A DNA stretch of 60,860 bases from the NCBI GenBank assembly GCA_035626895.1, contig DASPMU010000060.1, positions 1 through 60,860 of the forward strand, given 5' to 3'. Below, one piece after another: positions 1,005-43,903 of the stretch. The notes under the pieces were generated by a model. The model ran no database searches. It saw only the letters and a list, made by a program, of their open reading frames with translations, and was not told the DNA's origin. How positions within the stretch are numbered: position 1 is the stretch's first letter; each line of letters begins with the position of its first letter. A program made the position numbers and the translations under genes. The stretch comes from Alphaproteobacteria bacterium. Its GTDB lineage: Archaea > Nanobdellota > Nanobdellia > Woesearchaeales > UBA9642.

Positions 1005-1027
1005 GCCTTCTCTAGAATGTATCTAAA

Positions 1028-1122
1028 TTAATGCCGCCTAGCGAGTTCAGGAAATTATATGCCTTTGCGTCTAGACTCGTTTGCGAGCAGCGATTAAAGA
1101 ATCTGTACGAGCGCGGCATTAA
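1028..1122 (+). repeat. Copy 1 of a ~95-nt GC-rich structured repeat (candidate ncRNA or MITE-like element)
   Basis: Perfect 10-nt terminal complementarity TTAATGCCGC (1028-1037) / GCGGCATTAA (1113-1122). Core CCTTTGCGTCTAGACTCGT at 1062-1080 is shared with copies at 1166-1259(-), 14802-14890 and 41008-41109. It begins about 24 nt after the stop of the + strand flippase gene, in the same sense. Confidence 0.8.
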
Positions 1123-1165
1123 TTATTTAAGAAATTACAAGACTTGTTTCTAATTTCTCTTGTAT

Positions 1166-1259
1166 TGCCATCGGGCTCACACAACATGTAGTTTTCGATT
1201 CCCACCTACGAGTCTAGACGCAAAGGATTATTGTATCGAGGGTTCGCTAGCCGATGGCA
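1166..1259 (-). repeat. Copy 2 (inverted orientation) of the ~95-nt structured repeat
   Basis: On the + strand TGCCATCGG (1166-1174) pairs with CCGATGGCA (1251-1259). The reverse complement of 1205-1226 is CCTTTGCGTCTAGACTCGTAGG, the family core. The reverse-complement 5' part GCCATCGGCTAGCGAACCCTC nearly equals copy 4 (GCCATCTGCTAGCGAACCCTC). It lies about 30 nt past the stop of the minus-strand gene 1289..2410, in the same sense. Confidence 0.8.
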
Positions 1260-2432: not shown

Positions 2433-3608
2433 TCAGACTATATATTCCTCGTCTTTATCAGTATTAGATTCTATTTTTGATTTTGATTTCATAAATTTAT
2501 TTTGGATGTCAGCGATATTTTTGCAAACATACTCTATATCTTCAATGCTCATATTTGTATGGAATGGAATTGCAAGAGTCGTCTTTGAAATTTTCTCGCA
2601 TACAGGATAATCCCCTTCCTTGAAACCCATTTCCTTGTAGAATTTCATCAAATGTATTGGAGAGAAATAAGGGGAGCATGCAATGCCTCTTGCGATCAAT
2701 TCTTTCATGAAATCTTCCCTGTTTCCATTTTCAATTTGAATTATGTAAACAAACCATGATACTTTATGTTTATCATCTGAAAATATAGGGATTTTAATTC
2801 CTGGAACATCTTTTAATCTTTTTGTATATTCTTCTGCGACTTTAGTTCTCATATCAAGGATTTTATCGATTTTCTTGAGCTGTGATATTCCAAGAGCGCA
2901 ATTTATATCGCTTAGCCTGTAATTGTATCCTATCCGAACATGAGTATGCCAGTCGCTTGTTATTCCTCTTCCCTGATTTCTGTAGCTCTTGCATAATTCA
3001 TAGATTTTTTCATTGTTAGTAACAAGCATTCCTCCTTCTCCTGTTGTCATTTGCTTGTTTGGATAAAATGCAAATATACCGCAATCTCCGAATGTTCCGA
3101 CTTGCCTGTTATTGTACAAGGCTCCGATTGCTTCAGCTGTATCTTCTATAACATGCAGATTATGTTTTTTTGCTATTGCAAGTATTTCATCTTTCTCGCA
3201 AGGTTTTCCAAAAATATCAACAGGAATTATCGCCTTTGTTTTTGGAGTGATTTTCTCTTCAATTTTTTTTGGATCAATGTTAAATGTTACTGGATCGATG
3301 TCTACAAATACTGGAGTTGCTCCCTCGAACAATACGCAGTTGCTTGACGCTACAAAACTGAACGGAACAACAATCACTTCATCTCCAGGACCTATGCCTA
3401 AGGCTTTTACAGCAAGATGGAGCGCGCTTGTTCCTGAATTCAATGCAACAGCATACTTTGTTCCGACGTATTCTGCAAATTTCTCCTCGAACTCGACAAG
3501 CTTTGGTCCAAGGCTTAATGTATTAGTCTTAAGGACTTCAACTACTGCATTGATGTCGTCCTCTCCAATGTATGGAGCTGATAGGTTGATTTTTCTAAAC
3601 TCACTCAT
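2433..3608 (-). CDS. DegT/DnrJ/EryC1-family PLP-dependent sugar aminotransferase (PglE/LegC/PseC-like)
   Basis: NSGTSALHLAVKALGIGPGDEVIV and the PLP-lysine context FAFYPNKQMTTGEGGM. 4-nt overlap with the upstream gene. Confidence 0.85.
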   Translation of the reverse strand: MSEFRKINLSAPYIGEDDINAVVEVLKTNTLSLGPKLVEFEEKFAEYVGTKYAVALNSGTSALHLAVKALGIGPGDEVIVVPFSFVASSNCVLFEGATPVFVDIDPVTFNIDPKKIEEKITPKTKAIIPVDIFGKPCEKDEILAIAKKHNLHVIEDTAEAIGALYNNRQVGTFGDCGIFAFYPNKQMTTGEGGMLVTNNEKIYELCKSYRNQGRGITSDWHTHVRIGYNYRLSDINCALGISQLKKIDKILDMRTKVAEEYTKRLKDVPGIKIPIFSDDKHKVSWFVYIIQIENGNREDFMKELIARGIACSPYFSPIHLMKFYKEMGFKEGDYPVCEKISKTTLAIPFHTNMSIEDIEYVCKNIADIQNKFMKSKSKIESNTDKDEEYIV

Positions 3609-6253
3609 TTTTTGTCCCTCTGATTAGTTATTTCATTAATTAGTTCATTTTGTAAATTTCTTGCGACTAGAAGATTATCAATTAACATTGCAACAGTCAT
3701 AGGCCCAACGCCGCCAGGAACAGGAGTTATGTAAGATGCTTTTTTTGATGCTTGCTCAAAATCTACATCCCCGACTATTTTTCCGCTGGATTCAGATGTA
3801 CCGGCGTCAATAACTACAGCGCCTTCTTTGACCATGCCCGAAGTTATTATATTAGGAATTCCGGCTGCAGATATCAATATATCAGCTTTGAGGCATTCTT
3901 CTTTCAAATTAGTAGTCTTGCTGTTGCAAACAACAGGATTAATTCCCCTGTTCTTTAGCATTACAGATAATGGTTTTCCAACGAGTTTTCCGTTTCCAAC
4001 AAGAACAACGTTCTTTCCTTTCATGTCAATATTATACGATTCTAAAATCTTAAGTATTCCTTTCGGGGTGCATGGAACAAGCTTTTCATTCCCTAGCTCC
4101 ATTTCCTGTATATTATAGTTAGTCAAGCTATCAACATCTTTTATAGGAATCACTGAATTAATTACTCTATCATAATCCACATTTTTAGGGAGAGGCAATT
4201 GCACGATTATTCCATTTATTGATTCATCGTCATTTAACTCAGCTATTTTAGAAACAATTTTCTCTTCATCTGCTTCAAGCCTCAATATTTCAAAGTCTAC
4301 GCCTATTGATTCACATTTCTTTGCCTTGCTCTTTATGTATGATTCTGAAACTGAATTCTCTCCTGCAAGAACTATTGCAAGCTTTAGTCTTATATTTTTT
4401 GATTTTATTTCATTGCCTACTTCATTTATTACTTTCTCTGCAAGCTTTTTGCCGTCAAGGATTATTGGATTTAGCGATTTTCCTGTAGAATTGATTATTT
4501 CAGAAGATTTGTGAAGTATTGCTTTATCGTAGCTGAATTCTTTTGATAGATCTATAACTTCGTTTCTTAAGTTATCTAAGTTTTCTTTCTTGATCAATGC
4601 CCTTGCCATGAACCGGGCAATTTTTTTCATCTCTTCTTCTTTCATGCCTCTTGTTGTCATTGCAGGAGTTCCTATCCTGATGCCGCTCGGATCAAGCGGA
4701 CTTCTTGGATCGTAAGGAATCATGTTTCTGTTGACTGTTATGTTTATTGAATCAAGTATTTCCTCTGCCTGTTTTCCTGTATAGCCAGTATTTGTCAAAT
4801 CGATGAGCATCAAATGATTATCTGAGCCATTAGTTACAACTTTGAATCCCTGAAGGATAAGTTCGTCAGCAAATGCTTTCGTATTCTTGACTATTTGAGA
4901 TGCATATTCCCTGAATTTGCTCGTGGAAGCTTCTTTTAGCGCGATTGCAATTCCTGCTGTCGTATTATTATGCGGTCCGCCCTGCATTCCAGGGAATACT
5001 GCCTTGTCAATCTTGTCAGCAAATTTCTGCTTGCACATAATCATTGCGCCTCTTGGGCCTCTTAATGTCTTATGAGTTGTTGTTGTTACAACATCAGTGA
5101 ATGGGAAAGGCGATGGATGGTTGCCAGTTGCTACAAGCCCTGAAATATGCGAGATGTCAGCTAGATGTATTGCCCCGACTTCCTCAGCTATCTCCTGGAA
5201 TTTCTTGAAATCAATAGTTCGCGGATATGCTGTTGCTCCCGAAACAATTATTGCAGGCTTTTCTTTCAATGCAATCTGCCTTATCTCCTCGTAATCAAGC
5301 TGCATCGTGTCTTTATTCACGCCGTAATTTACTATAGTATAATTTTTCCCTGAGAAATTTACCTTATGACCATGAGTCAAATGTCCTCCCTGAGCAAGGC
5401 TTAAAGATAAAATCTTATCGCCATTTTTTATCAATGCAGAATAAACCTCAATATTTGCAGGAGAGCCGGAATAAGGCTGCACGTTTGCATGCTCTGCGCC
5501 GAATAATTTCTTTGCGCGATCGATTGCAATATTTTCTATCTCATCGATATATTTATTTCCGCCGTAATATCTCTTTCCAGGATATCCTTCAGAATACTTA
5601 CTATTCAGAATTGATCCCAAAGCGCTAAGTACATCTGAGCTTGCATAATTTTCAGATGGGATAAGATTGATACTCTCATTTACTCTTTCGTTTTCTTTCT
5701 TTATCAAGTCGAAGATTTCTTTAGAAGCATTTTCTGAAATATTTTCTTTGCTTTTTTCGTGCTCTAGAGTTATTTCATCAATTCTCTTTATCAATTTAAC
5801 AGGAGAGCCAAAAGCTAGATATCCGTCAGGAATATCTTTGTTTACAAATGAATGCGCTCCAACTATTGCATTCTCTCCGATGTGAACTCCAGGCATTATC
5901 GTGCTGTGAGAGCCGACGCAGGAATTCTTTCCTATATGAACTTTTCCTGCAAAACCTTTTCCTGTCCTTGGATCAGGAATTGTGCTGATGCTGTAGATCA
6001 CGCAGTGGCTTCCTATCTGGACATTGTCCTCGATTTCAACGCCGTAATGCGCAAATATTGCAGTGTATGCTCCAATGTCGGTGTATTTTCCTAATTTGAA
6101 TTTATCAGGAGAGTATACTGTCCAGTTGTAGATTGTCGGCTTGCCATGGATTATTTCAGGCATCTTCCATTCTTTTCCAGCAGATTTGTCGAATCTTTTA
6201 TCTAAGTCGATATCCACAAGTTCATGTCCTGGTTTTTGATCCCTGTTTACCAT
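3605..6253 (-). CDS. Three-domain fusion: hexapeptide-repeat acyltransferase + serine hydroxymethyltransferase (GlyA-like) + methylene-THF dehydrogenase/cyclohydrolase (FolD-like)
   Basis: One uninterrupted 882-aa ORF. aa ~1-160 (nt 5774-6253): left-handed beta-helix repeats IGAYTAIFAHYGVEIEDNVQIGSHCVIY...IGKNSCVGSHSTIMPGVHIGENAIVGAHSFV. aa ~176-577 (nt 4523-5728): SHMT signatures INLIPSENYASSDVL, YPGKRYYGG, VVTTTTHKTLRGPRG. aa ~596-866 (nt 3656-4468): FolD signatures GIIVQLPLPKNVD, CTPKGI, VVLVGNGKLVGKP, ITPVPGGVGPMTVAML. Confidence 0.8.
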   Translation of the reverse strand: MVNRDQKPGHELVDIDLDKRFDKSAGKEWKMPEIIHGKPTIYNWTVYSPDKFKLGKYTDIGAYTAIFAHYGVEIEDNVQIGSHCVIYSISTIPDPRTGKGFAGKVHIGKNSCVGSHSTIMPGVHIGENAIVGAHSFVNKDIPDGYLAFGSPVKLIKRIDEITLEHEKSKENISENASKEIFDLIKKENERVNESINLIPSENYASSDVLSALGSILNSKYSEGYPGKRYYGGNKYIDEIENIAIDRAKKLFGAEHANVQPYSGSPANIEVYSALIKNGDKILSLSLAQGGHLTHGHKVNFSGKNYTIVNYGVNKDTMQLDYEEIRQIALKEKPAIIVSGATAYPRTIDFKKFQEIAEEVGAIHLADISHISGLVATGNHPSPFPFTDVVTTTTHKTLRGPRGAMIMCKQKFADKIDKAVFPGMQGGPHNNTTAGIAIALKEASTSKFREYASQIVKNTKAFADELILQGFKVVTNGSDNHLMLIDLTNTGYTGKQAEEILDSINITVNRNMIPYDPRSPLDPSGIRIGTPAMTTRGMKEEEMKKIARFMARALIKKENLDNLRNEVIDLSKEFSYDKAILHKSSEIINSTGKSLNPIILDGKKLAEKVINEVGNEIKSKNIRLKLAIVLAGENSVSESYIKSKAKKCESIGVDFEILRLEADEEKIVSKIAELNDDESINGIIVQLPLPKNVDYDRVINSVIPIKDVDSLTNYNIQEMELGNEKLVPCTPKGILKILESYNIDMKGKNVVLVGNGKLVGKPLSVMLKNRGINPVVCNSKTTNLKEECLKADILISAAGIPNIITSGMVKEGAVVIDAGTSESSGKIVGDVDFEQASKKASYITPVPGGVGPMTVAMLIDNLLVARNLQNELINEITNQRDKK

Positions 6254-12823: not shown

Positions 12824-14782
12824 TTATAAAAGTTTCTCTATCTGTTTTGCAACCCTGCTGGCGGCCTTGCCGTCGTTGCCATAATGCAGCCTATTTACGA
12901 AATGCTTGATGTTTTCCTTCATGTGTTTTTCGTAAACAGGATTCTTCAATTTATGCAGCGCGTCTTTAACATCTGAACCATCCGCAACTTCAATTACAGC
13001 TCCAGTGTCCTTGAATTTAATTCCATCAGGTTCAATATCATTATAAATTATCATCAAGACTATTTTTCCAAAAAGCATTGCTTCAAAGCCAGCTGTTGTG
13101 TTAAACATCAATACATAATCGGAGAAATTCAGCAAGCTGTAAGTGTCTGCTGCAGGCTCAACTATTATCAAGTTCTTAGGCCTGTTTTTGAATGAATTCA
13201 GGACTAACTCCAAGCTCTCGTTAGGATGAGGCTTGTAGACGAATAAATATTCCGAATTTTTTCTTGCAACATCAAGATAAATATTGAAATGATCAAGCAT
13301 GTTTGATGAAACAATAAGTATTTTCTTTCTTGGATCATTGAAGAAAGAATATTTCTTGACGAATTTTTCTCGATCGTAATGAGCATTGAAGATCCAATCA
13401 AATTTAGGACTGCCTGTGACCTTAACAACGTTTTCAGGATACGCGCAATATTTTACGAGAACATCTTTTGAATACTCGCTCCATTGGCAGCTGACATCCG
13501 GAAGAGGCCTCCAGGCTGGAGAATTTCTATCCATCGCAATCTTATTTTTGGTTGAAGTATGAAGGCATCCAGGATATATCTGTTCGTGCGAGAGGGCGAC
13601 AACACTTCGTTTTTTTCTCTTTGCGTTTGCATTCTTTTCAAGATTGTTGTGTATCATGAACGCTTTTCCAAGAGTGTTTTCTGCATGATCTATTACTATT
13701 GCCTTGTAATTTTCTTTTTCGTTTATTCTTGCAGCAATATTTTTCATGTCGCATGAAAGATAAGATAATGCATTGAATAATAGTTCAAGCCTTGGCCTGA
13801 TTAATTCATAATAATTATATCCATTGTACTTGAAACTTGCCTGGAATTTCGTCGTGTTTTTAAGTTCATTCCACCTGTTTTTTAGTTTCTTGAAGTCTTT
13901 GTCATTATTTCTAAAGTGTGTGTAAGTATAATAATCTCCTATATAAGATCCTTTCATGAATGCATATTTCTTTAGCAGCTTGATATTTTTTGATTGTATT
14001 GCTTCTTCGTAGAATAAAGTCTTGCTTGTTGTTTTCTTTTTCAGGTTTTTCATGACAGACCCAAACATCAGATTATCATCGAAATTCTTTCTCAAAAACC
14101 TTATATTTGCAAGGAAAAGTACATCTTCTTTAGAATCAGAGTTAGATTTCCCTAAAATTCTCCTGACAAGACCTAATGCATGCCTCAGGCCAAGCCTGCC
14201 TCTAAGAAGCAAATACATAGGAAAAGAATTTTCGTATATGAAACTTAATTTTTTGCTCAATGTCTTATTTTTTATAACGTGAAGCTTGAAGCCTTTCTCT
14301 TTTGCAATTATCTCTGCGCATTTGACAAAGGTATTCTCATAGAAATCCTCGACTTCAAGCGTCAATGTCTGGCCTTTTTTCAAATTCAGCGAATCAAGTA
14401 TTTCGATATAATTGTAAATTATCAAAGTCCCGGGAGATTTCTGGAAAAAATAATCATGCTGATAGAGTATCGGCATCAAAAGATCAGAATAATTGTATCC
14501 ATCGATTATGAAATTTTTTCTCATTGCATGAAGCAAATTACTATGCTGCAAGAGCATATCTGTTATATTAGAATAATAGCCATTGAACCAATGTATTTTT
14601 TTTGCGCTTACACTATCTTTGCCTTCGCGGCTATCTTTGCTTGGCTTTATCGTTATAGATTGATCCTTAAAATCCAGTTTTACATACATAAAATCACGCT
14701 TCATTCCAAAAGCAAGGATCGCTTTAAAAATATTAAGGATTATACGTCTAGAAGAAGAGAAAAACAATAAACTCCGTTTCAA
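12824..14782 (-). CDS. Large protein with a TagF/KpsS/polysialyltransferase-like GT-B C-terminal half; candidate nonulosonate (or other acidic sugar) transferase
   Basis: C-terminal region VKVTGSPKFDWIF...KILIVSSNM...LFVYKPHPNE...MFNTTAGFEAMLFGKIVL resembles the HP-motif GT-B transferases. I could not match the N-terminal ~380 aa to any family. The listed start is TTG; an in-frame ATG (MKRDFMYVKL) lies at 14704. Confidence 0.35.
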   Translation of the reverse strand: MKRSLLFFSSSRRIILNIFKAILAFGMKRDFMYVKLDFKDQSITIKPSKDSREGKDSVSAKKIHWFNGYYSNITDMLLQHSNLLHAMRKNFIIDGYNYSDLLMPILYQHDYFFQKSPGTLIIYNYIEILDSLNLKKGQTLTLEVEDFYENTFVKCAEIIAKEKGFKLHVIKNKTLSKKLSFIYENSFPMYLLLRGRLGLRHALGLVRRILGKSNSDSKEDVLFLANIRFLRKNFDDNLMFGSVMKNLKKKTTSKTLFYEEAIQSKNIKLLKKYAFMKGSYIGDYYTYTHFRNNDKDFKKLKNRWNELKNTTKFQASFKYNGYNYYELIRPRLELLFNALSYLSCDMKNIAARINEKENYKAIVIDHAENTLGKAFMIHNNLEKNANAKRKKRSVVALSHEQIYPGCLHTSTKNKIAMDRNSPAWRPLPDVSCQWSEYSKDVLVKYCAYPENVVKVTGSPKFDWIFNAHYDREKFVKKYSFFNDPRKKILIVSSNMLDHFNIYLDVARKNSEYLFVYKPHPNESLELVLNSFKNRPKNLIIVEPAADTYSLLNFSDYVLMFNTTAGFEAMLFGKIVLMIIYNDIEPDGIKFKDTGAVIEVADGSDVKDALHKLKNPVYEKHMKENIKHFVNRLHYGNDGKAASRVAKQIEKLL

Positions 14783-14801
14783 CTAACCCCCTCCTACGGC
14801 C

Positions 14802-14890
14802 TTGTCACCTGGCGAGCCCTCATTGACATCTCCTTTGCGTCTAGACTCGTAGGCGGCAAACGATTAAAGAAGCGATGCGAGCGCTGGCAA
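14802..14890 (+). repeat. Copy 3 of the ~95-nt structured repeat (antisense to both flanking genes)
   Basis: Core 14832-14871 CCTTTGCGTCTAGACTCGTAGGCGGCAAACGATTAAAGAA is identical at 39 of 40 positions to copy 4. The termini TTGTCACC / GCTGGCAA pair as RNA with one G-U and one mismatch. Confidence 0.75.
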
Positions 14891-14895
14891 TGCCA

Positions 14896-14921
14896 TCTCG
14901 AGAAAACGAGAGAGTATTTTT
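14896..14921 (+). terminator. Small hairpin plus T-run directly after repeat copy 3
   Basis: TCTCG-AGAAAA-CGAGA (14896-14911) followed by GAGTATTTTT. No + strand CDS lies upstream, only the repeat element. Confidence 0.3.
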
Positions 14922-14951: not shown

Positions 14952-17345
14952 TTACTTGTAAAGAACTTTATACAGGGAATAATCTCCATTGTCCCAGACT
15001 TTCTTGAAGTATTCTTCGTTGTTGATATTCTTTGTGATGATGGATTCTGAGTATAGGTCGTTTCTTCCAAATACATTTTCTTCCCAGCCAGGATTCTTAT
15101 ACAGGATGAATTCTATTCCTAAGTTTTCGAGAACAATCATAGAATAATCCAAGTCTGAATCATATGTTGAAGCAAGCTTTGACGAGTCTATTAAAACATA
15201 GTCTCTTTCTGAATAGTAAGATACGCCGCCGTATTGCAATGTAACGGTGTCAGCAGGAGTCCCATCTCTTATTATTAGCTGAGCTTCATATCCTTTGCCG
15301 AAATTCATCAAAAGAACAGAACTATCGTCCGGATTGAACCTGAAAATATTATCATCGTATATTTCTTTGTTATCAAGATATTTTGAATATAGTATCTGGC
15401 CTGTTGCTTCGTCAGTTAGGCCATAATTTATCACAGCAAGACCCCAAAGCGAAGGAATTGCAAGTATTACAAGCAAAATTGCAGACCATGCTCTTCGAGC
15501 TGTCTTTGAATTTAATTTTACAAATTTGTTTACAAGAACCCATACCAAAAGAGCAACAATTGCCGTCAATAGGCTAATCATTATTATAATATCTATTCCG
15601 GAAATAAATCTTGCTGAAAGAGGACCAAGAAGTCCTATAAAGAAATTTGAATAATACAGCATCAATAGATAGCCGACCAAGCTTAATGAAATTAATCCAA
15701 GAGACCAGTACAATATTTTCTTCTCAAGCCTTGAAACCCTGAATTTTAGGAAATCATCAAACTTCGACGCTACAACGACGCAAAGTATTGCTGCTCCGAT
15801 CATGAAATATCGATATTTTACAAGTATTGTATAAACAAAGAAAATAGTGTAAATTCCAAGGAAATAAAGCAGGTATCTCTGCTGCTCATTCATTTTTCTG
15901 AAATTGATTATTGCAATTAAAAGCAGTACTGCAAAAAGAACTGACATTGAATAATCCTTATCTCTGGCGTAATTTGTTATGCTAAAAGCCGTGTATGCAG
16001 GAGAATAGAATAGATTCAGCCTGTCATGCGCTTCTGCAAGCGGCTCGAAGAGGAAAGGATGGAAATTCTTTCCTGCAAAAATTTCAGTTGATGAAAGATA
16101 AGGATATACTGGATCGTTGAAGTACACATAGTTTCTCAGGAAATACGGCGCAATTACTATAAGCAATACGACTAGCGAAAGCAATAGAAGCTTGAATTTC
16201 TTGCTTGTGAATATTTTCTTGATATCGCGTCCAAAGTTTCCAAACCTGTCCTTGAATATCCCTATTAATTCTTTCTTGAATAATATTAATACAAATGGAA
16301 TGAAAACGCTTGCAAACAATATGACGCCAAGATGCTTTGCATTGACTGCAAACCCAAGTATTGCAAATGATAATAGCATATATCTGCCATTAGTCTTTCT
16401 GTCCGGAACTTCGGAGTTTTCCTTGAAATATTTCATGAGGAAATATATTCCTAGTATCCCAAAGAAAGTGAAGATTGTGTCATTGTTCAGATAGACATTA
16501 TGATTTGCAAACATCGGAAATGTCATCAATAAGAAAGTTGCAAGAAGAGCTTTTCTCTTGCCGTCCAAGAGAGGGCTGTCCTTGAATACAATGTTTTTTG
16601 CGAGAAGATAGACAACAATCAAAGTCAAAAATCCAAATAGGAGCGGCATTAGCTTTATGAAAACTTCGCTGTACTCAGCATCAAGTATTGATGGCCAGGC
16701 TCCAAGGATAAAGAATGTCGGAGGATATGCTCTTGTGAATTCGATGGTGTTAGATCCGACGTCATGCGACAGGCCGCCATCATTGTATAAATCACGAATT
16801 ATAGGAGCGTGATATCCTATCCCATCTCCATTTATTATAGGGAAGAAAAGTGATTTGTAAATTATTAAGATAAACATCAATGCAATCAGGATCTTGATCG
16901 TCCTATTCTCGGAAATCAGATCCTTGAATTTTTCCTTGAGTACTTTCCTTGAGAAATTTCTTGACAAGAATGCCTTAAATGATCTCATGTGATGGAAATC
17001 TTCATCGAAATGAAGGACAAATATCCCGATTAAAAACATCAAAAGAGAATATGCAAAAGCAATCGTGGAATTAAATCCTACGCCTGCTGCTGAAAATATG
17101 AATTGATCGACTATAAAAAATATCAAACTGAAAGTTCCGACTCCTACGGCGACTGATGAAACAAAGTATTCTTTATTGCTTATTCTATCTTGCTGCGAGT
17201 TCTTGAAGAATGATTTAACTATAGCGTAGCCAAATATAAGTATGGCAAGCAAACCAAATAATGCTAATATCAACATTCTCTTAGGCAAACACATAGCAAT
17301 AAAAAGTTTATTAAAATTAAGATAAAATTCAGATGATTTCTGCAC
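14952..17345 (-). CDS. Polytopic GT-C-like glycosyltransferase (ArnT/PMT-type) with soluble C-terminal domain
   Basis: 797 aa. Hydrophobic helices run through most of the first ~650 aa, with an early loop FPIINGDGIGYHAPIIRDLYNDGG. The last ~150 aa are hydrophilic. Several in-frame Met are available near the start (M18, M24). Confidence 0.5.
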   Translation of the reverse strand: MQKSSEFYLNFNKLFIAMCLPKRMLILALFGLLAILIFGYAIVKSFFKNSQQDRISNKEYFVSSVAVGVGTFSLIFFIVDQFIFSAAGVGFNSTIAFAYSLLMFLIGIFVLHFDEDFHHMRSFKAFLSRNFSRKVLKEKFKDLISENRTIKILIALMFILIIYKSLFFPIINGDGIGYHAPIIRDLYNDGGLSHDVGSNTIEFTRAYPPTFFILGAWPSILDAEYSEVFIKLMPLLFGFLTLIVVYLLAKNIVFKDSPLLDGKRKALLATFLLMTFPMFANHNVYLNNDTIFTFFGILGIYFLMKYFKENSEVPDRKTNGRYMLLSFAILGFAVNAKHLGVILFASVFIPFVLILFKKELIGIFKDRFGNFGRDIKKIFTSKKFKLLLLSLVVLLIVIAPYFLRNYVYFNDPVYPYLSSTEIFAGKNFHPFLFEPLAEAHDRLNLFYSPAYTAFSITNYARDKDYSMSVLFAVLLLIAIINFRKMNEQQRYLLYFLGIYTIFFVYTILVKYRYFMIGAAILCVVVASKFDDFLKFRVSRLEKKILYWSLGLISLSLVGYLLMLYYSNFFIGLLGPLSARFISGIDIIIMISLLTAIVALLVWVLVNKFVKLNSKTARRAWSAILLVILAIPSLWGLAVINYGLTDEATGQILYSKYLDNKEIYDDNIFRFNPDDSSVLLMNFGKGYEAQLIIRDGTPADTVTLQYGGVSYYSERDYVLIDSSKLASTYDSDLDYSMIVLENLGIEFILYKNPGWEENVFGRNDLYSESIITKNINNEEYFKKVWDNGDYSLYKVLYK

Positions 17346-17427
17346 TTTTGACTAAATCCTAAAATACTCTAATTTCGTCACCACTCGAGGATAAATTGAT
17401 TAACATTCAGTATTTTAAGTAGGCAAA

Positions 17428-24736: not shown

Positions 24737-24768
24737 AAAAATCCGCGAGCCTGATGGCATTTTTAGAA

Positions 24769-39951: not shown

Positions 39952-40983
39952 ATGGTTGACGCAGAAAGATTAAAACAATTGCTCGAAAATTCTAAAGTCA
40001 AAGATATTGATGGGTTGTTTAATTCATTAAAAGATATCAAAGTGATGATAATCGGGGATACAATAATAGATCATTACGTATTTGTACATCCTAAAGGAAG
40101 GGCTGTAAAAGATCCAATACTTTCTGTAGAATATCTTAGAGATGAAAAATACGCTGGAGGCGTCCTGGCAGTTGCAAGGCACGTGAGCGACTTTGTAGAC
40201 AAAATAAAAGTAGTCACGCTTCTTGGAGAAAAAGAAGATCATCATGAATTCATCCAGGATTCAATAAAAGGAAAGAATATTGACATGGACGTTTTCATCA
40301 AGCCTAACGCATTCACGACAGTCAAAAGAAGATACATCGATTATCACAGGGGAAATAAGCTGTTTAAGATAGAGCATATTGATGAAAAAGATGTAGACGC
40401 CCAGCTTACAAAAAAAATAACAGAATACTTAATCAAAGAGCTTCCTTCATATGATCTTGTAATGGTATCAGATTTCGGCCACGGATTCTTGAATAGCGAG
40501 CTTCGAAAAGTAATTGAAGAAAACTCAAAATATTTGACAATAAACGTACAATCAAATAGCTCTAACATGGGATATAATTATGTTACAAGATATAGCAAGG
40601 CAGACTATCTCACAATGAACGAGACAGAAATAAGGCTTCCTCTAATGATGCGCTATGAAGATATATCAGAAGTCATGAAAGAATTCAGCAACAAGACTAA
40701 TTTCAAGAATTATCTTGTAACTTTAGGAAGGCGCGGCTCAGTTTTCAGTACAGGGGAAAAGATGCATGATGCTCCTCTTCTTGCAACAACAGTAGTTGAC
40801 ACTGTCGGCGCTGGGGACGCAGTATTCTCATTTACGTCCCTATTAGTATTCAAGAAAATCGACCATGAATTAATACCATTCTTTGCAAACTGCGCAGGCG
40901 GAGTTGCAACAAACATAATGGGAAACAAAGACAGCATAGATAAAGAATCGATCAAGAAATTTATTCTTGCGATGAATGCTTAA
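39952..40983 (+). CDS. PfkB-family sugar kinase (HldE domain-I/RfaE-like heptose-7-phosphate kinase candidate)
   Basis: VMIIGDTIIDHYVFV near the N-terminus and the ATP-site motif VVDTVGAGDAVFS. Directly follows the GmhA-like gene. Confidence 0.65.
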   Translation: MVDAERLKQLLENSKVKDIDGLFNSLKDIKVMIIGDTIIDHYVFVHPKGRAVKDPILSVEYLRDEKYAGGVLAVARHVSDFVDKIKVVTLLGEKEDHHEFIQDSIKGKNIDMDVFIKPNAFTTVKRRYIDYHRGNKLFKIEHIDEKDVDAQLTKKITEYLIKELPSYDLVMVSDFGHGFLNSELRKVIEENSKYLTINVQSNSSNMGYNYVTRYSKADYLTMNETEIRLPLMMRYEDISEVMKEFSNKTNFKNYLVTLGRRGSVFSTGEKMHDAPLLATTVVDTVGAGDAVFSFTSLLVFKKIDHELIPFFANCAGGVATNIMGNKDSIDKESIKKFILAMNA

Positions 40984-41007: not shown

Positions 41008-41109
41008 AAAACGCCATCTGCTAGCGAACCCTCTGATAAACTATCCTTTTCGTCTAGACTCGTAGGCGGCAAACGATTAAAGAATAAAATGTGAGCCTGA
41101 TGGCGTTTT
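41008..41109 (+). repeat. Copy 4 of the ~95-nt structured repeat
   Basis: 11-nt terminal complementarity AAAACGCCATC (41008-41018) / GATGGCGTTTT (41099-41109). Core 41045-41084 CCTTTTCGTCTAGACTCGTAGGCGGCAAACGATTAAAGAA. Starts about 24 nt after the stop of the + strand kinase gene, in the same sense, and ends in a T-run. Confidence 0.8.
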
Positions 41110-41483: not shown

Positions 41484-41945
41484 TTAATCTTTATCCGATC
41501 CTATCAATATGACTCCTATTATGATAATTATTATTCCAATTATTTGCGCAAAGAAGATTTTTTCTCCAAGCACAAAATAAGAAAGCATAGATACCCACAT
41601 GAAATTTAGGCTCATGAAAGGATAAGCATAGCTTAGATTAACATTTTTCATTGAATAAATAAGGAAAATTGCCCCGAAAGCATACAAAACTATTCCTGTA
41701 AGCAAATAAGGATTGAATATTATAGATTGAGCCATGTAATAGCTTACTGACAAGTGCTGGGCGCCAAGCTTTAGAAACAATTGGCCAAATGATGTGCATA
41801 TTGTCGCAAGAAGTATGAATATTAGAAAAGAATGTTTATGAGATAATTCCTTGAATCCTTGTAAGTATTCCTTAAAAGATCCTGGCTTAGATGTTGATCC
41901 TGATCCACTCACCTTTCTCTTTCCTTTGCTAGTCTTAGATTTCAT
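41484..41945 (-). CDS. Small EamA/SMR-like membrane protein, first of the pair
   Basis: Basic N-terminus MKSKTSKGKRKVSGSGS followed by hydrophobic helices. Its start overlaps the stop of the upstream GT-C-like gene by 1 nt. Confidence 0.5.
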   Translation of the reverse strand: MKSKTSKGKRKVSGSGSTSKPGSFKEYLQGFKELSHKHSFLIFILLATICTSFGQLFLKLGAQHLSVSYYMAQSIIFNPYLLTGIVLYAFGAIFLIYSMKNVNLSYAYPFMSLNFMWVSMLSYFVLGEKIFFAQIIGIIIIIIGVILIGSDKD

Positions 41946-43903
41946 TATTGAGGAATACGTACTTCATATAATGCAGCAAGTTCTTGGCCGTTTGAACTAT
42001 AAGACCATACCTTGCTTAGAATTGGATCAATACTAGGATTCCATGGATGCATGACGCTCTGATAATTTTGAGGGCTTGCAATAATCAATCTATGCTGCAT
42101 TACGTCTGGGCCCCTAACTGACGGGTCAAGCCAGCCATTTTCAATTGCATAAGATACATTGTTTTCTTGAAGCGCAAGTTCTATATTTACATCATAAACC
42201 ATAAGCAAAGGATCGAACAATCCTACAACTCTTCCCTGCCCGTCAAGCTGGAATTCGCTGTTTATCCAGTAATAATCCCAGTATAGATATTTTACATCGT
42301 ATTTTTTTAGAAGATCAATTTTCTTCTCTAAATTTTGACCGTAGAGCATTATTGCAAGATCTTTTTCCCTTATATCTGATTGTATATATTGGAATTGCCC
42401 GGCGTGTCCTCTTCGTGAGGCAACTATCTTTCTTCCAGTCATAGAGTTTACTGCAAAGCCAAGTTCCTTAGGAGTAATTATTGTGTCAGTGACTTCTGAA
42501 TTTTCAAGCAGATACTCTTGCAGAGAAACATAGTTCTCCCCGAATGGAGCCTTTCCTGATTCATACCATTTGTTTGCAGTATAAACATCAAATGCCTGAT
42601 AAAGAAGAAGAAAGCCCAAAAGCATGACGATGATTCCTATATAATCTATTATTTTCCTATTTAGATTTCTTCCTAAAAATCCGCCAAGCATTGCCCCGAA
42701 TACTTTGACTCCGTAGCATACAAATATTGCCTGCACAAAATAGAATGTTATCATCAGATAATCAGCAACAAAGTTTATCCCGAAGAAATTCTGCGTGACG
42801 AGGAAATGCAGGACTATTATGCTATAGCAAGTGAATAAAAATATTGCAAACTTTGTTTCCTCTTTCTTGTTTTTCAGGAAAAATGCCCCGAACAATCCCA
42901 AAAGGGAGAATAACGATAACACTATTCCTTTAAGTGTAAAACCGTGGAAGAAATTCTGCTTGATGAACATCCAAAGAAGCGCCATCTGATATTTGAAAGT
43001 ATATTCATATCCGATGAACATGTTTGCCTTTCCATGGAATACAAATAATGGCGCATACCACCAAAGCAGCGCAACTATTGTTCCCATTATTGCAACAATT
43101 GCATAATCAAGAAGATTGTCGATATTTATGCTTGAGAAAAATCTTTTGCCAGGATTTGATTCAGCAGAATTTTTCCTGAAATTCTTGTAAATGTTCTGAT
43201 ACAATTCATAATATAGGAAAGTAAGTATCAAGAAGAATGTTGAAGATATAAATATTATAGAATGAGTAATTCCTGTAATTCCATACATCAGGCCCAAGAG
43301 AATGCCGTTCATTATTGATTTATGGAATACAAACCTGTAAAGGCACAAAAGGAACAATGGTACAATTAATATCATTCCAAATGACAAATACTTATAGACA
43401 GGCAGGCCAGTCAGGACTGTAAATATTGCTGAGCCGAATATTGCTATATAATAATCATCAAATAACTTATATAATAAATAGAACGCGACAGTCATTCCGA
43501 GCGCAATTATTATGTACGACATAAAATTCATTGCCGCAAATGCGTCAAGGCCAAACACCTTGGCAAAGCCTGCTGTCAGGATAGAATACAGCGGCTGATA
43601 TACGGCTATTTCGCCGTTTGACGTGCTTGAATGGAATGGATTCCCGCCGGAAAGTATATGATTTACGCTTCCCATCTGGAAATAATAATCCCCGCCGTAG
43701 ATTGGGGAAGGAAGAGAATTCATTTCCCTAGTATACATGTAGTTCAAGAATAATCCTAGAATGAATACGCCTATCATGAGGCATAATAAGACTTTATTTT
43801 TCAAAATCTTGTGCTTGAGAGTTATTGTATCTTTTGTTATTTCTTTTTCTATCTTGTGTTCAATATTTTCTATTTTATCAGTTAATGTAGATTGTCCGCT
43901 CAA
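41945..43903 (-). CDS. Polytopic GT-C-like glycosyltransferase with soluble C-terminal domain
   Basis: 652 aa. Early periplasm-type loop SPIYGGDYYFQMGSVNHILSGGNPF. Hydrophobic helices through ~aa 440, then a hydrophilic domain. Translationally coupled to the EamA-like pair. Confidence 0.45.
   Translation of the reverse strand: MSGQSTLTDKIENIEHKIEKEITKDTITLKHKILKNKVLLCLMIGVFILGLFLNYMYTREMNSLPSPIYGGDYYFQMGSVNHILSGGNPFHSSTSNGEIAVYQPLYSILTAGFAKVFGLDAFAAMNFMSYIIIALGMTVAFYLLYKLFDDYYIAIFGSAIFTVLTGLPVYKYLSFGMILIVPLFLLCLYRFVFHKSIMNGILLGLMYGITGITHSIIFISSTFFLILTFLYYELYQNIYKNFRKNSAESNPGKRFFSSINIDNLLDYAIVAIMGTIVALLWWYAPLFVFHGKANMFIGYEYTFKYQMALLWMFIKQNFFHGFTLKGIVLSLFSLLGLFGAFFLKNKKEETKFAIFLFTCYSIIVLHFLVTQNFFGINFVADYLMITFYFVQAIFVCYGVKVFGAMLGGFLGRNLNRKIIDYIGIIVMLLGFLLLYQAFDVYTANKWYESGKAPFGENYVSLQEYLLENSEVTDTIITPKELGFAVNSMTGRKIVASRRGHAGQFQYIQSDIREKDLAIMLYGQNLEKKIDLLKKYDVKYLYWDYYWINSEFQLDGQGRVVGLFDPLLMVYDVNIELALQENNVSYAIENGWLDPSVRGPDVMQHRLIIASPQNYQSVMHPWNPSIDPILSKVWSYSSNGQELAALYEVRIPQ

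Follow-up and report, generated by a model that had tools for sequence, protein, structure and literature searches.

Interspersed intergenic elements with a covarying closing fold in the glycosylation island of a Woesearchaeota-like DPANN archaeon

Results

A lineage-restricted family of intergenic elements

A Woesearchaeota-like DPANN archaeon carries a lineage-restricted family of interspersed intergenic elements, each about 95-100 nt long. Their conserved feature is the fold of one strand: the closing fold, which brings the two ends of each copy together, is under selection.

The window analysed here is a stretch of 60,860 nt (record positions 10,963-71,822 of ENA ERZ27252493 k141_667464, 90,691 nt), the whole of which is a single large N-glycosylation (glycan-biosynthesis) island. 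Besides an STT3/AglB oligosaccharyltransferase and many glycosyltransferases, its genes specify nucleotide-sugar enzymes, a flippase and EamA transporters. TATA boxes of the TTTATAAA type occur in its promoter regions, and many of its genes have ribosome-binding sites of the form GGGGG or GGTGA. For the S-layer-like protein, AglB and PfkB, the nearest homologues bear the names Woesearchaeota or Nanoarchaeota. Together with the archaeal promoter and ribosome-binding-site setting, these homologues lead us to regard the host as a Woesearchaeota-like DPANN archaeon; the label ‘Alphaproteobacteria bacterium’ that its NCBI proteins carry looks wrong. Over 88 kb of the contig there is no gene for a transposase, an integrase or a reverse transcriptase, and the RVT domain is absent from every ORF of the window and its flanks.

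The initial annotation, made from the sequence of the window, had reported four copies of one element, and all four are recovered at the same places (c1-c4, Table 1). The core CCTTTKCGTCTAGACTCGT has four matches in the window with at most three mismatches, against 0.01 expected from dinucleotide-preserving shuffles. The four copies align over about 95 nt with a mean column identity of 70-78%, and c3 and c4 do agree at 39 of 40 core positions, as had been noted. The elements have a G+C content of 47-55% against 36% for the window.

Public metagenome contigs scanned for the core yielded one true match, JGI Ga0196981_1000537 (hereafter L013), which is 99.95% identical to positions 1-2166 of the window and extends about 9 kb leftward. 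Profile search recovered a fifth copy, c5, whose core has one mismatch, as well as a relic at 24740-24762. A covariance model built from c1-c5 (R1) scores the five full copies at 88-103 bits; searched against the window, L013 and the 27 kb rightward of the last copy, it found no further copies. Five copies lie within 55 kb of the island, and zero in the adjacent 27 kb.

Table 1 Copies of the element and their parts, in window positions unless L013 is named.
Feature	Positions	Strand	Score and remarks
c1	1026..1124	+	covariance model 94 bits
c1 P1 arms	1026-1037 / 1113-1124	+	12 bp perfect
c1 bulge CUA	1038-1040	+	
c1 P2 strands	5' GCGAGU 1041-1046; 3' ACGAGC 1107-1112	+	
c1 core 19-mer	1062-1080	+	
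c1/c2 spacer	1125..1165	.	41 nt; c1 and c2 tail to tail
c2	1166..1259	-	102.7 bits; P1 9 bp perfect, TGCCATCGG / CCGATGGCA
c2 core 19-mer	1208-1226	-	
c3	14800..14892	+	88.2 bits; most degenerate P1, 11/14 paired including one G-U
c3 core 19-mer	14832-14850	+	
3' relic	24740..24762	+	GCGAGC + arm CTGATGGCA + TTTTT; nhmmer E 0.056
c4	41008..41109	+	102.5 bits; P1 12/13 with one U.U
c4 core 19-mer	41045-41063	+	
c5	L013 4083-4182	- (= window + strand)	about 2 kb left of base 1 of the window; E 4e-21

Neither 185,579 species-representative genomes nor viral contigs contain the exact core; among 241 million metagenome records it occurs in the host itself only. Five core matches among the species-representative genomes are unrelated to the family, three of them belonging to a conserved coding locus that also appears in the metagenome scan, and the 19-mer matches in Acidobacteria and Actinobacteria are a coincidence within coding sequence. 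Phages and plasmids gave no blastn match. A viral or plasmid origin was further pursued with a gapped two-block pattern: of the 35 viral loci that it retrieved, none obtains a score from the covariance model, and we reject this origin. A literature search on the core sequence and the sample accessions yielded nothing relevant.

A covarying closing fold

The closing helix of the element, P1, has 9-15 bp, and its sequence drifts while its pairing is retained. Complementary, covarying ends had already been described; they are real, and the helix is longer than first stated. In c5 it is composed of 7 bp, a 2-nt bulge and then 8 bp. A 3-nt bulge of the form CUR follows P1 and leads into P2, a 4-bp helix split by tandem G.A: G13-C85, C14-G84, G15.A83, A16.G82, R17-Y81 and Y18-R80, in columns of alignment A3. 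This register replaces the helix continuation proposed earlier, in which CU(A/G)GCG was paired with GAG(U/C)G; that pairing has one-sided changes only, and one break.

Among the five host copies, changes on both sides are present in eight of nine P1 pairs and in two of four P2 pairs. Including the two copies from related genomes described below, seven distinct sequences from three genomes were aligned and fitted to the model, which introduces a bias in the model's favour, while the P2 columns are anchored by invariant neighbours. In this alignment 94.2% of closing-helix cells pair, with 12 of 13 pairs changed on both sides; none of 500 shuffles reaches the observed pairing, and slid registers pair at 20-42%. 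P2 is 100% paired and three of its four pairs carry compensatory changes. They amount to three independent double changes: G-C to A-U in c2 and c4 (c2 has A-U at this covarying pair), C-G to U-A in c1, and C-G to U-A in the copy of the related genome L031. The tandem G.A is invariant in all seven sequences.

RNAalifold, applied to the hand-curated seven-sequence alignment, returns P1 and P2 only, with -12.3 kcal/mol for the sense strand versus -5.2 kcal/mol for the antisense strand. G-U pairs exceed A.C mismatches by about 5:1 in the sense strand. The invariant G.A pairs, the G-U excess and the better consensus energy all favour the sense strand as the folded one.

Related arms around a conserved interior

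The paired end sequence had been said to differ between copies. This holds for most pairs of copies, whose arm identity of 1/18 to 10/18 is near random, but some arms are related. Those of c2 and c4 are identical at 14 of 18 positions, and the relic at 24740-24762, which has no 5' half and sits in a 32-nt gap between convergent genes, carries an arm of the same type. The 3' arm of c3, GCTGGCAATG, matches the complement of the 5' arm of the copy in the related genome L032, CATTGCCAG, and a loose TGCC...GGCA core is common to all arms. The arms are thus inherited, and neither random nor derived from a target. Insertion of the element into older terminator hairpins is rejected because c2, c4 and the relic, and likewise c3 and the L032 copy, have arm types in common; the window is also free of other such hairpins. 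With near-random identity between most arms, the earlier conclusion stands that these ends are no sequence-conserved terminal inverted repeat such as a transposase binds. Arms that change quickly yet always pair, around an interior that changes slowly, indicate constraint on a folded single strand.

The interior measures about 60 nt and is 64-84% identical between copies. A hairpin P3 (CGUCUA / UAGGCG) shows no variation or covariation, is broken in c1 and is absent from the L031 and L032 copies; we therefore do not retain it as a feature of the family. A small hairpin, P4 (UCGN...NCGA), is possible in seven of seven sequences, with a single variable pair (U-A, A-U, U-G or U.U), and in the L032 copy the interior has hardly any structure (-1.1 kcal/mol). 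What the interior conserves is therefore its sequence, without a demonstrable common fold. Covariation had been claimed for an inner hairpin after GACU; the case is weak, as the hairpin is essentially an invariant UCG...CGA with one variable pair and the c2 version cited lies in a different register.

Copies in related genomes

Regions of about 20 kb around the AglB or S-layer gene of six relatives (L028, L029 and L031-L034) were searched with R1. In L032 (Logan ERR14790927; AglB 60% identical), a copy at 17334-17417 scores 29-35 bits, with E-values of 5e-6 to 1e-7. It is truncated by the contig end and lies upstream of a divergently oriented gene. In L031 (JGI Ga0182027_10000021; AglB 63% identical), a copy at 16842-16931 scores 17.8 bits, with E-values of 0.014-0.025; taken alone it is borderline (E 0.014-0.15 over all searches), but it is probably a genuine member of the family. 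The L031 and L032 copies reinforce each other, since the inclusion of one in the profile raises the score of the other, and they have CAAATAACTCGA in common. Both adjoin the AglB gene. The regions searched in L028, L029, L033 and L034 contain no copy, including the S-layer neighbourhoods of L028 and L029; L034 is a more distant relative (AglB 56% identical).

When sequence alone is used, in a profile of c1-c5, the L032 copy scores 10.8 bits (E 0.046) against 29-35 bits with the covariance model, so the structure terms supply much of the signal. Both relatives retain the blocks CU.G.GAGC, ACUCG, AAU.GA.U.AAUA and AUGCGARC and the 15-nt linker length; the GTCTAGAC palindrome of the 19-mer core is retained in neither. 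The interiors of the L032 copy and c5 are 72% identical, a value like that of paralogues within the host genome, despite an AglB identity of 60%. Positions of the element differ between relatives, and L029 has no copy at the promoter-upstream site that is occupied in L031. With c5, the relic and the copies of two related genomes, the description of c1 and c2 as founding copies of a four-member family proves too narrow, because the family extends to other Woesearchaeota.

Placement relative to genes

Copies c1, c2 and c4, the relic and the L031 copy start 3-39 nt past a stop codon, in the sense of the gene. The start of c1 lies 22-24 nt past the stop of a flippase-like gene (66-1004, +), that of c2 29 nt past the stop of a Polysacc_synt_2 gene (1289-2410, -), each in the same sense as its gene, and that of c4 24 nt past the PfkB stop (39952-40983, +). 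At its other end c4 stops 22 nt ahead of the stop of a convergent EamA gene. The placement described initially, of an element after a gene and in its sense, is thus good for c1, c2 and c4 but not for c3 and c5, which are antisense to both neighbours. Located between two minus-strand genes, c3 ends 61 nt from the stop of a PMT-like gene (14952-17345) and adjoins the Shine-Dalgarno sequence and start of a 652-aa gene (12824-14782). Position 14890 may hold a 5'-arm relic. Copy c5 lies 150 nt past the 3' end of a 5S rRNA gene, antisense to it and to a sugar-dehydrogenase gene, with a TATA-like box about 35-45 nt upstream.

None of the five divergent promoter regions of the window contains a copy, and a copy or relic is present at three of its six convergent junctions; both numbers are too small for significance. 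Likewise, five of the six copies and relics lie on the window + strand, which is not significant. A U-rich run follows P1 in c1, c4 and the relic and is missing in c2, c3 and the L031 copy; c4 is bounded by an A-run and a T-run (AAAAACGCCATCTG ... CTGATGGCGTTTT). Other short-loop, high-G+C hairpins with a stem of at least 8 bp were not found after genes anywhere in the window, so 3'-end hairpins are not general in this genome.

No promoter motif common to the copies is present upstream of them. At the helix ends of c1-c4 there is no direct repeat of the kind left by target-site duplication, and a 9-nt AGCTAAATA repeat at c5 sits in a locally repetitive stretch. The halves of the c1/c2 spacer are inverted related tails, AAGAAATTACAAGAC vs GAGAAATTAGAAACA, agreeing at 12 of 15 positions in a direct reading; local alignments at stricter scoring show no homology past the arms into this spacer. 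Copies occur in both orientations relative to genes and transcription; from this and the relics, we conclude that the element behaves as an interspersed repeat.

Searches against known RNAs and elements

Rfam 15 at gathering thresholds has no match in the window, and none on c1 or c2 at E<=10. On c4 and the L031 copy it returns only noise, with eukaryotic lncRNA and snoRNA models at E 0.86-9.9. ARAGORN detects no tRNA or tmRNA in the window, L013 or L024. These searches agree with the first reading of the DNA, which had assigned the element to no known RNA class and had found no tRNA cloverleaf in it; its failure to find C/D boxes or a bulge-helix-bulge motif was equally sound. As a C/D box sRNA the element can be dismissed: its conserved blocks are CUAGCGAR and RYGAGC, and UGAUGA occurs in no copy. 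Against a bulge-helix-bulge there is one bulge only, the columns of the second, 80-81, being paired and covarying with 17-18. A kink-turn is rejected because G13-C85 and C14-G84 separate the CUR bulge from the G.A pairs.

Other candidates were set aside on structural or genomic grounds. A hammerhead is contradicted by the two-way junction, by A/G at the equivalents of G5/A6 and by the absence of any Rfam match at E<=10; a retron RNA by the lack of a reverse transcriptase gene in the window or flanks. Rfam recognises a true 5S gene next to c5 and no 5S likeness in our element, whose duplexes with 5S rRNA have energies no better than those of shuffles, which disposes of both a 5S-derived element and a 5S guide. 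A small ORF is rejected on account of stop codons and of the lack of a start codon common to the copies, and a pair of replication-origin ORB sites given the dispersed copies and the lack of an orc1/cdc6 gene.

Discussion

By analogy with the bacterial REP, ERIC and BOX repeats, we tentatively propose, with rather less than even confidence, that the element is a transcribed structural element of 3' ends. It would be transcribed within the 3' ends of neighbouring glycosylation-gene transcripts. There its closed stem, often together with the U-rich run, could serve as a terminator, an exonuclease block or an insulator of convergent genes, and the conserved interior might be where a lineage-specific factor binds. 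For the bacterial repeats a mode of action of this sort has been proposed. Family, fold, conservation across species and placement are observations; transcription, the role at 3' ends, the binding partner and the route of dispersal are what we infer. The fold, the cross-species conservation, the sense placement after stop codons and the lack of copies in divergent promoter regions count for this proposal. The antisense position of c3 and c5, the missing U-run of c2, c3 and the L031 copy, an interior without a consistent fold, a window without other 3' hairpins and a sample of seven sequences from three genomes count against it.

The initial annotation had taken the conserved structure to point to a structured RNA and not to a transposase-bound TIR. 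The repeat family, the conserved core and the covarying closing helix are confirmed, but they do not decide between a structured RNA and a mobile element: the element behaves as an interspersed repeat, and covariation cannot separate a transcript-end structure from DNA moved as a single strand, because REPIN hairpins also covary (PMC3116915). A close rival, somewhat less likely in our judgement, is that these copies are non-autonomous DNA with no cell function, which a transposase whose gene lies elsewhere in the genome would move in the form of a single-stranded hairpin, like REPIN/RAYT or PATE/IS200/IS605 TnpA. The pairing of the ends would then be retained because the enzyme recognises the folded strand, and REPINs provide documented compensatory changes. 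Multiple copies at non-homologous sites and in both orientations relative to genes would follow, as would a 3' relic at 24740, a possible 5'-arm relic at 14890 and positions that differ between relatives, with the L031 site empty in L029. Elements of this sort can do without conservation of terminal inverted repeats and leave the target unduplicated, which fits the copies here. The predominance of the + strand (five of the six copies and relics) recalls replication-coupled insertion of single-stranded DNA, but this 5:1 bias is not significant. MITE-like repeats are reported at high density in a Woesearchaeal genome (PMC11602168); in our 88 kb of contig, however, no transposase is encoded, and the copies are old (64-84% identical) with no young cluster among them. 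No conserved target tetranucleotide accompanies the 5' arm. The layout is the reverse of a REPIN, with variable ends and a conserved, non-palindromic centre, and the exact core is absent outside the host from all the genomes, metagenome records and viral contigs searched. Finally, 72% interior identity across genomes whose AglB proteins are 60% identical suggests constraint beyond selfish spread. A 3'-end role and movement as single-stranded DNA are not exclusive, as a selfish repeat can become a transcript-end structure.

Two readings make the element an RNA in its own right. The broader one, which we judge unlikely, is a new class of structured RNA of Woesearchaeota-type DPANN, not selfish DNA, tied to cell-surface glycosylation loci, in which the closing helix with its G.A motif would display the interior of about 60 nt, and this interior would serve as the scaffold of an RNP, as a sensor or as a catalytic core. 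We give still less credence to independent small RNA genes of about 95 nt, which would encode paralogous trans-acting RNAs working in an RNP, with a protein on the G.A helix or the interior, or else a ribozyme. Paralogous structured RNAs do show this pattern, in which a closing helix varies yet always pairs and the interior is conserved; the preferred sense strand, the invariant tandem G.A and the conservation across species agree with it, and transcription could start divergently from the TATA-like box about 35-45 nt upstream of c5. Genes of this sort are nonetheless hard to reconcile with copies that have no promoter in common, with an interior whose fold is not conserved (-1.1 kcal/mol in L032), with the existence of relics and with the loss in relatives of the 19-mer including its GTCTAGAC palindrome. 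Five copies in 55 kb of the island and none in the adjacent 27 kb also speak against them.

A DNA recombination site at the junctions of exchangeable glycosylation modules, recognised by structure like attC, is very improbable: all copies do lie at gene-module boundaries of a variable glycosylation island, their stems covary and carry extrahelical bases, and integrons have reportedly been seen in Archaea by one study, but the ends of c1, c2 and c5 have no R''/R' boxes (RYYYAAC / GTTRRRY), no integrase is encoded in 88 kb, the spacing of 10-26 kb is not that of single cassettes, orientations are mixed, and a conserved centre with varying ends is the opposite of mobile attC sites.

The genomes of DPANN archaea are tiny and leave little space for spare DNA, and, to our knowledge, almost nothing is known of the non-coding RNAs and mobile elements of these organisms. 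With a fold conserved over sequence across species, the element would be either a new archaeal counterpart of REP/ERIC or a new structured RNA; in the latter case it would be linked to the variable surface-glycan islands that shape contact between symbiont and host. The case also carries a caution, in that covariation alone is no proof of an RNA gene.

Comparison with known systems

Two likenesses to catalytic or reverse-transcribed RNAs are local. The hammerhead core consists of CUGANGA and stem II, which CU(A/G)GCGA and the helix closed by tandem G.A resemble; here there is no third stem. Similarly, the closing helix followed by UAGCGAG is reminiscent of the a2 arm and branching-G region of the retron Ec86, but the length of the element does not suffice for msr and msd together.

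With integron attC sites the element shares its size, its site after genes, a folded single strand with extrahelical bases and the precedence of pairing over sequence. It differs in its conserved centre, in a spacing of 10-26 kb across operons and in its mixed orientations; moreover, the R''/R' boxes are absent in c1, c2 and c5 (c4 alone has AAC...GTT), there is no integrase and there is no cassette array. Classical MITEs are likewise small, non-coding, intergenic and taxon-specific, with complementary ends. Assignment to them fails on the lack of a conserved terminal inverted repeat and of target-site duplications; in addition, the copies are 64-84% identical, without a recent burst, and no related transposase is encoded in 88 kb.

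REPIN hairpins, in which compensatory changes are common, are moved as single-stranded hairpins and resemble the element in their length of about 70-110 nt, in forming a long-range hairpin in single-stranded DNA or mRNA and in the absence of target duplication (PMC3116915). The inverted pair c1/c2 looks superficially like a REPIN doublet; single copies are the rule here. The ends of REPINs are conserved inverted 16-mers around a variable spacer; here the ends vary and the centre is conserved, which is the reverse layout and excludes a REPIN, and no RAYT is encoded in 88 kb.

The nearest parallel is with REP, ERIC and BOX elements. These are bacterial, 35-130 nt long, G+C-rich relative to their surroundings, multi-copy and extragenic, often placed between convergent genes; their transcription goes along with that of the genes next to them, and they form stem-loops. 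ERIC sequences are conserved across species while their chromosomal positions differ, and the mode of spread and function of REP and ERIC are still debated. Our element is also short, G+C-rich, multi-copy and intergenic. In contrast to REP and ERIC it is archaeal, has no sequence similarity to them and closes with a freely varying helix, where their stems are conserved in sequence, around a non-palindromic interior and next to an invariant tandem G.A. None of the described families matches the element, and among prokaryotic intergenic repeats its layout is an unusual one; the general kind to which it belongs, the small structured interspersed repeat, is already known.

Copies of the element and its neighbourhood

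Two Logan contigs from SRR7004167, L022 and L023, end within c4 (the element copy at 41008-41109), from opposite sides, at their positions 2426 and 9714, respectively. That the assembler breaks at this repeat suggests more copies elsewhere in the same genome. The sequence directly following c3, the copy at 14800-14892, agrees with c4's 5′ arm in eight of nine positions; it may represent what is left of another copy once arranged in tandem with c3.

In two relatives, represented by contigs L029 and L031, a conserved promoter-like block is found upstream of a surface-protein gene. The probable element copy of L031 (16842-16931) is placed immediately upstream of this block; the corresponding site of L029 is empty. 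The L031 copy also comes immediately after a gene for one of the 614-624-aa membrane proteins that, in relatives, are encoded after the oligosaccharyltransferase AglB. Their counterparts in the window are two 652-aa paralogues, one of them with a weak match to DUF6541. An element copy lies near each paralogue gene.

The conserved core 19-mer occurs as well in many acidobacterial and actinobacterial contigs (L001, L004-L012, L014-L016, L018-L021). We rejected these matches as copies: they come from a conserved gene start (ATGACGAGTCTAGACGCAAAGG) read on the opposite strand, which misleads exact-word searches for the element.

Coordinates of features in the window and on related contigs
Feature	Location	Strand	Remark
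Predicted fusion protein, 882 aa	window 3605-6253	-	hexapeptide-repeat transferase + serine hydroxymethyltransferase + FolD
652-aa membrane-protein gene	window 12824-14782	-	
652-aa membrane-protein gene	window 41945-43903	-	
ATGCCATCTCGAG	window 14890-14902	+	immediately 3′ of c3
Promoter-like block TTTGTTGTCAC...AAAAACAATAAACTTTAAATA	L029 2575-2630; L031 16960-17015		
5S rRNA gene	L013 3816-3932	+	Rfam RF00001, 73.7 bits
Duplicated 5S-end segment	L013 ~3917-3967 and ~4010-4060		

Glycosylation island and its host

The island holds a lone 5S rRNA gene on the overlapping contig L013, ~2 kb to the left of the window's first base, with element copy c5 150 nt away. The final ~14 nt of the gene and ~37 nt downstream are duplicated, the second copy lying ~93 nt further on.

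The name 'Alphaproteobacteria bacterium' is the NCBI protein naming for ENA ERZ27252493 k141_667464, which spans the whole window. This label looks wrong: the window's promoters have TATA boxes of archaeal type, and homologues of the S-layer protein, AglB and PfkB belong to Woesearchaeota or Nanoarchaeota.

The predicted fusion protein is encoded within a sugar-modification operon and is possibly the formyl-group source for a formylated sugar; its FolD part is a methylene-THF dehydrogenase/cyclohydrolase.
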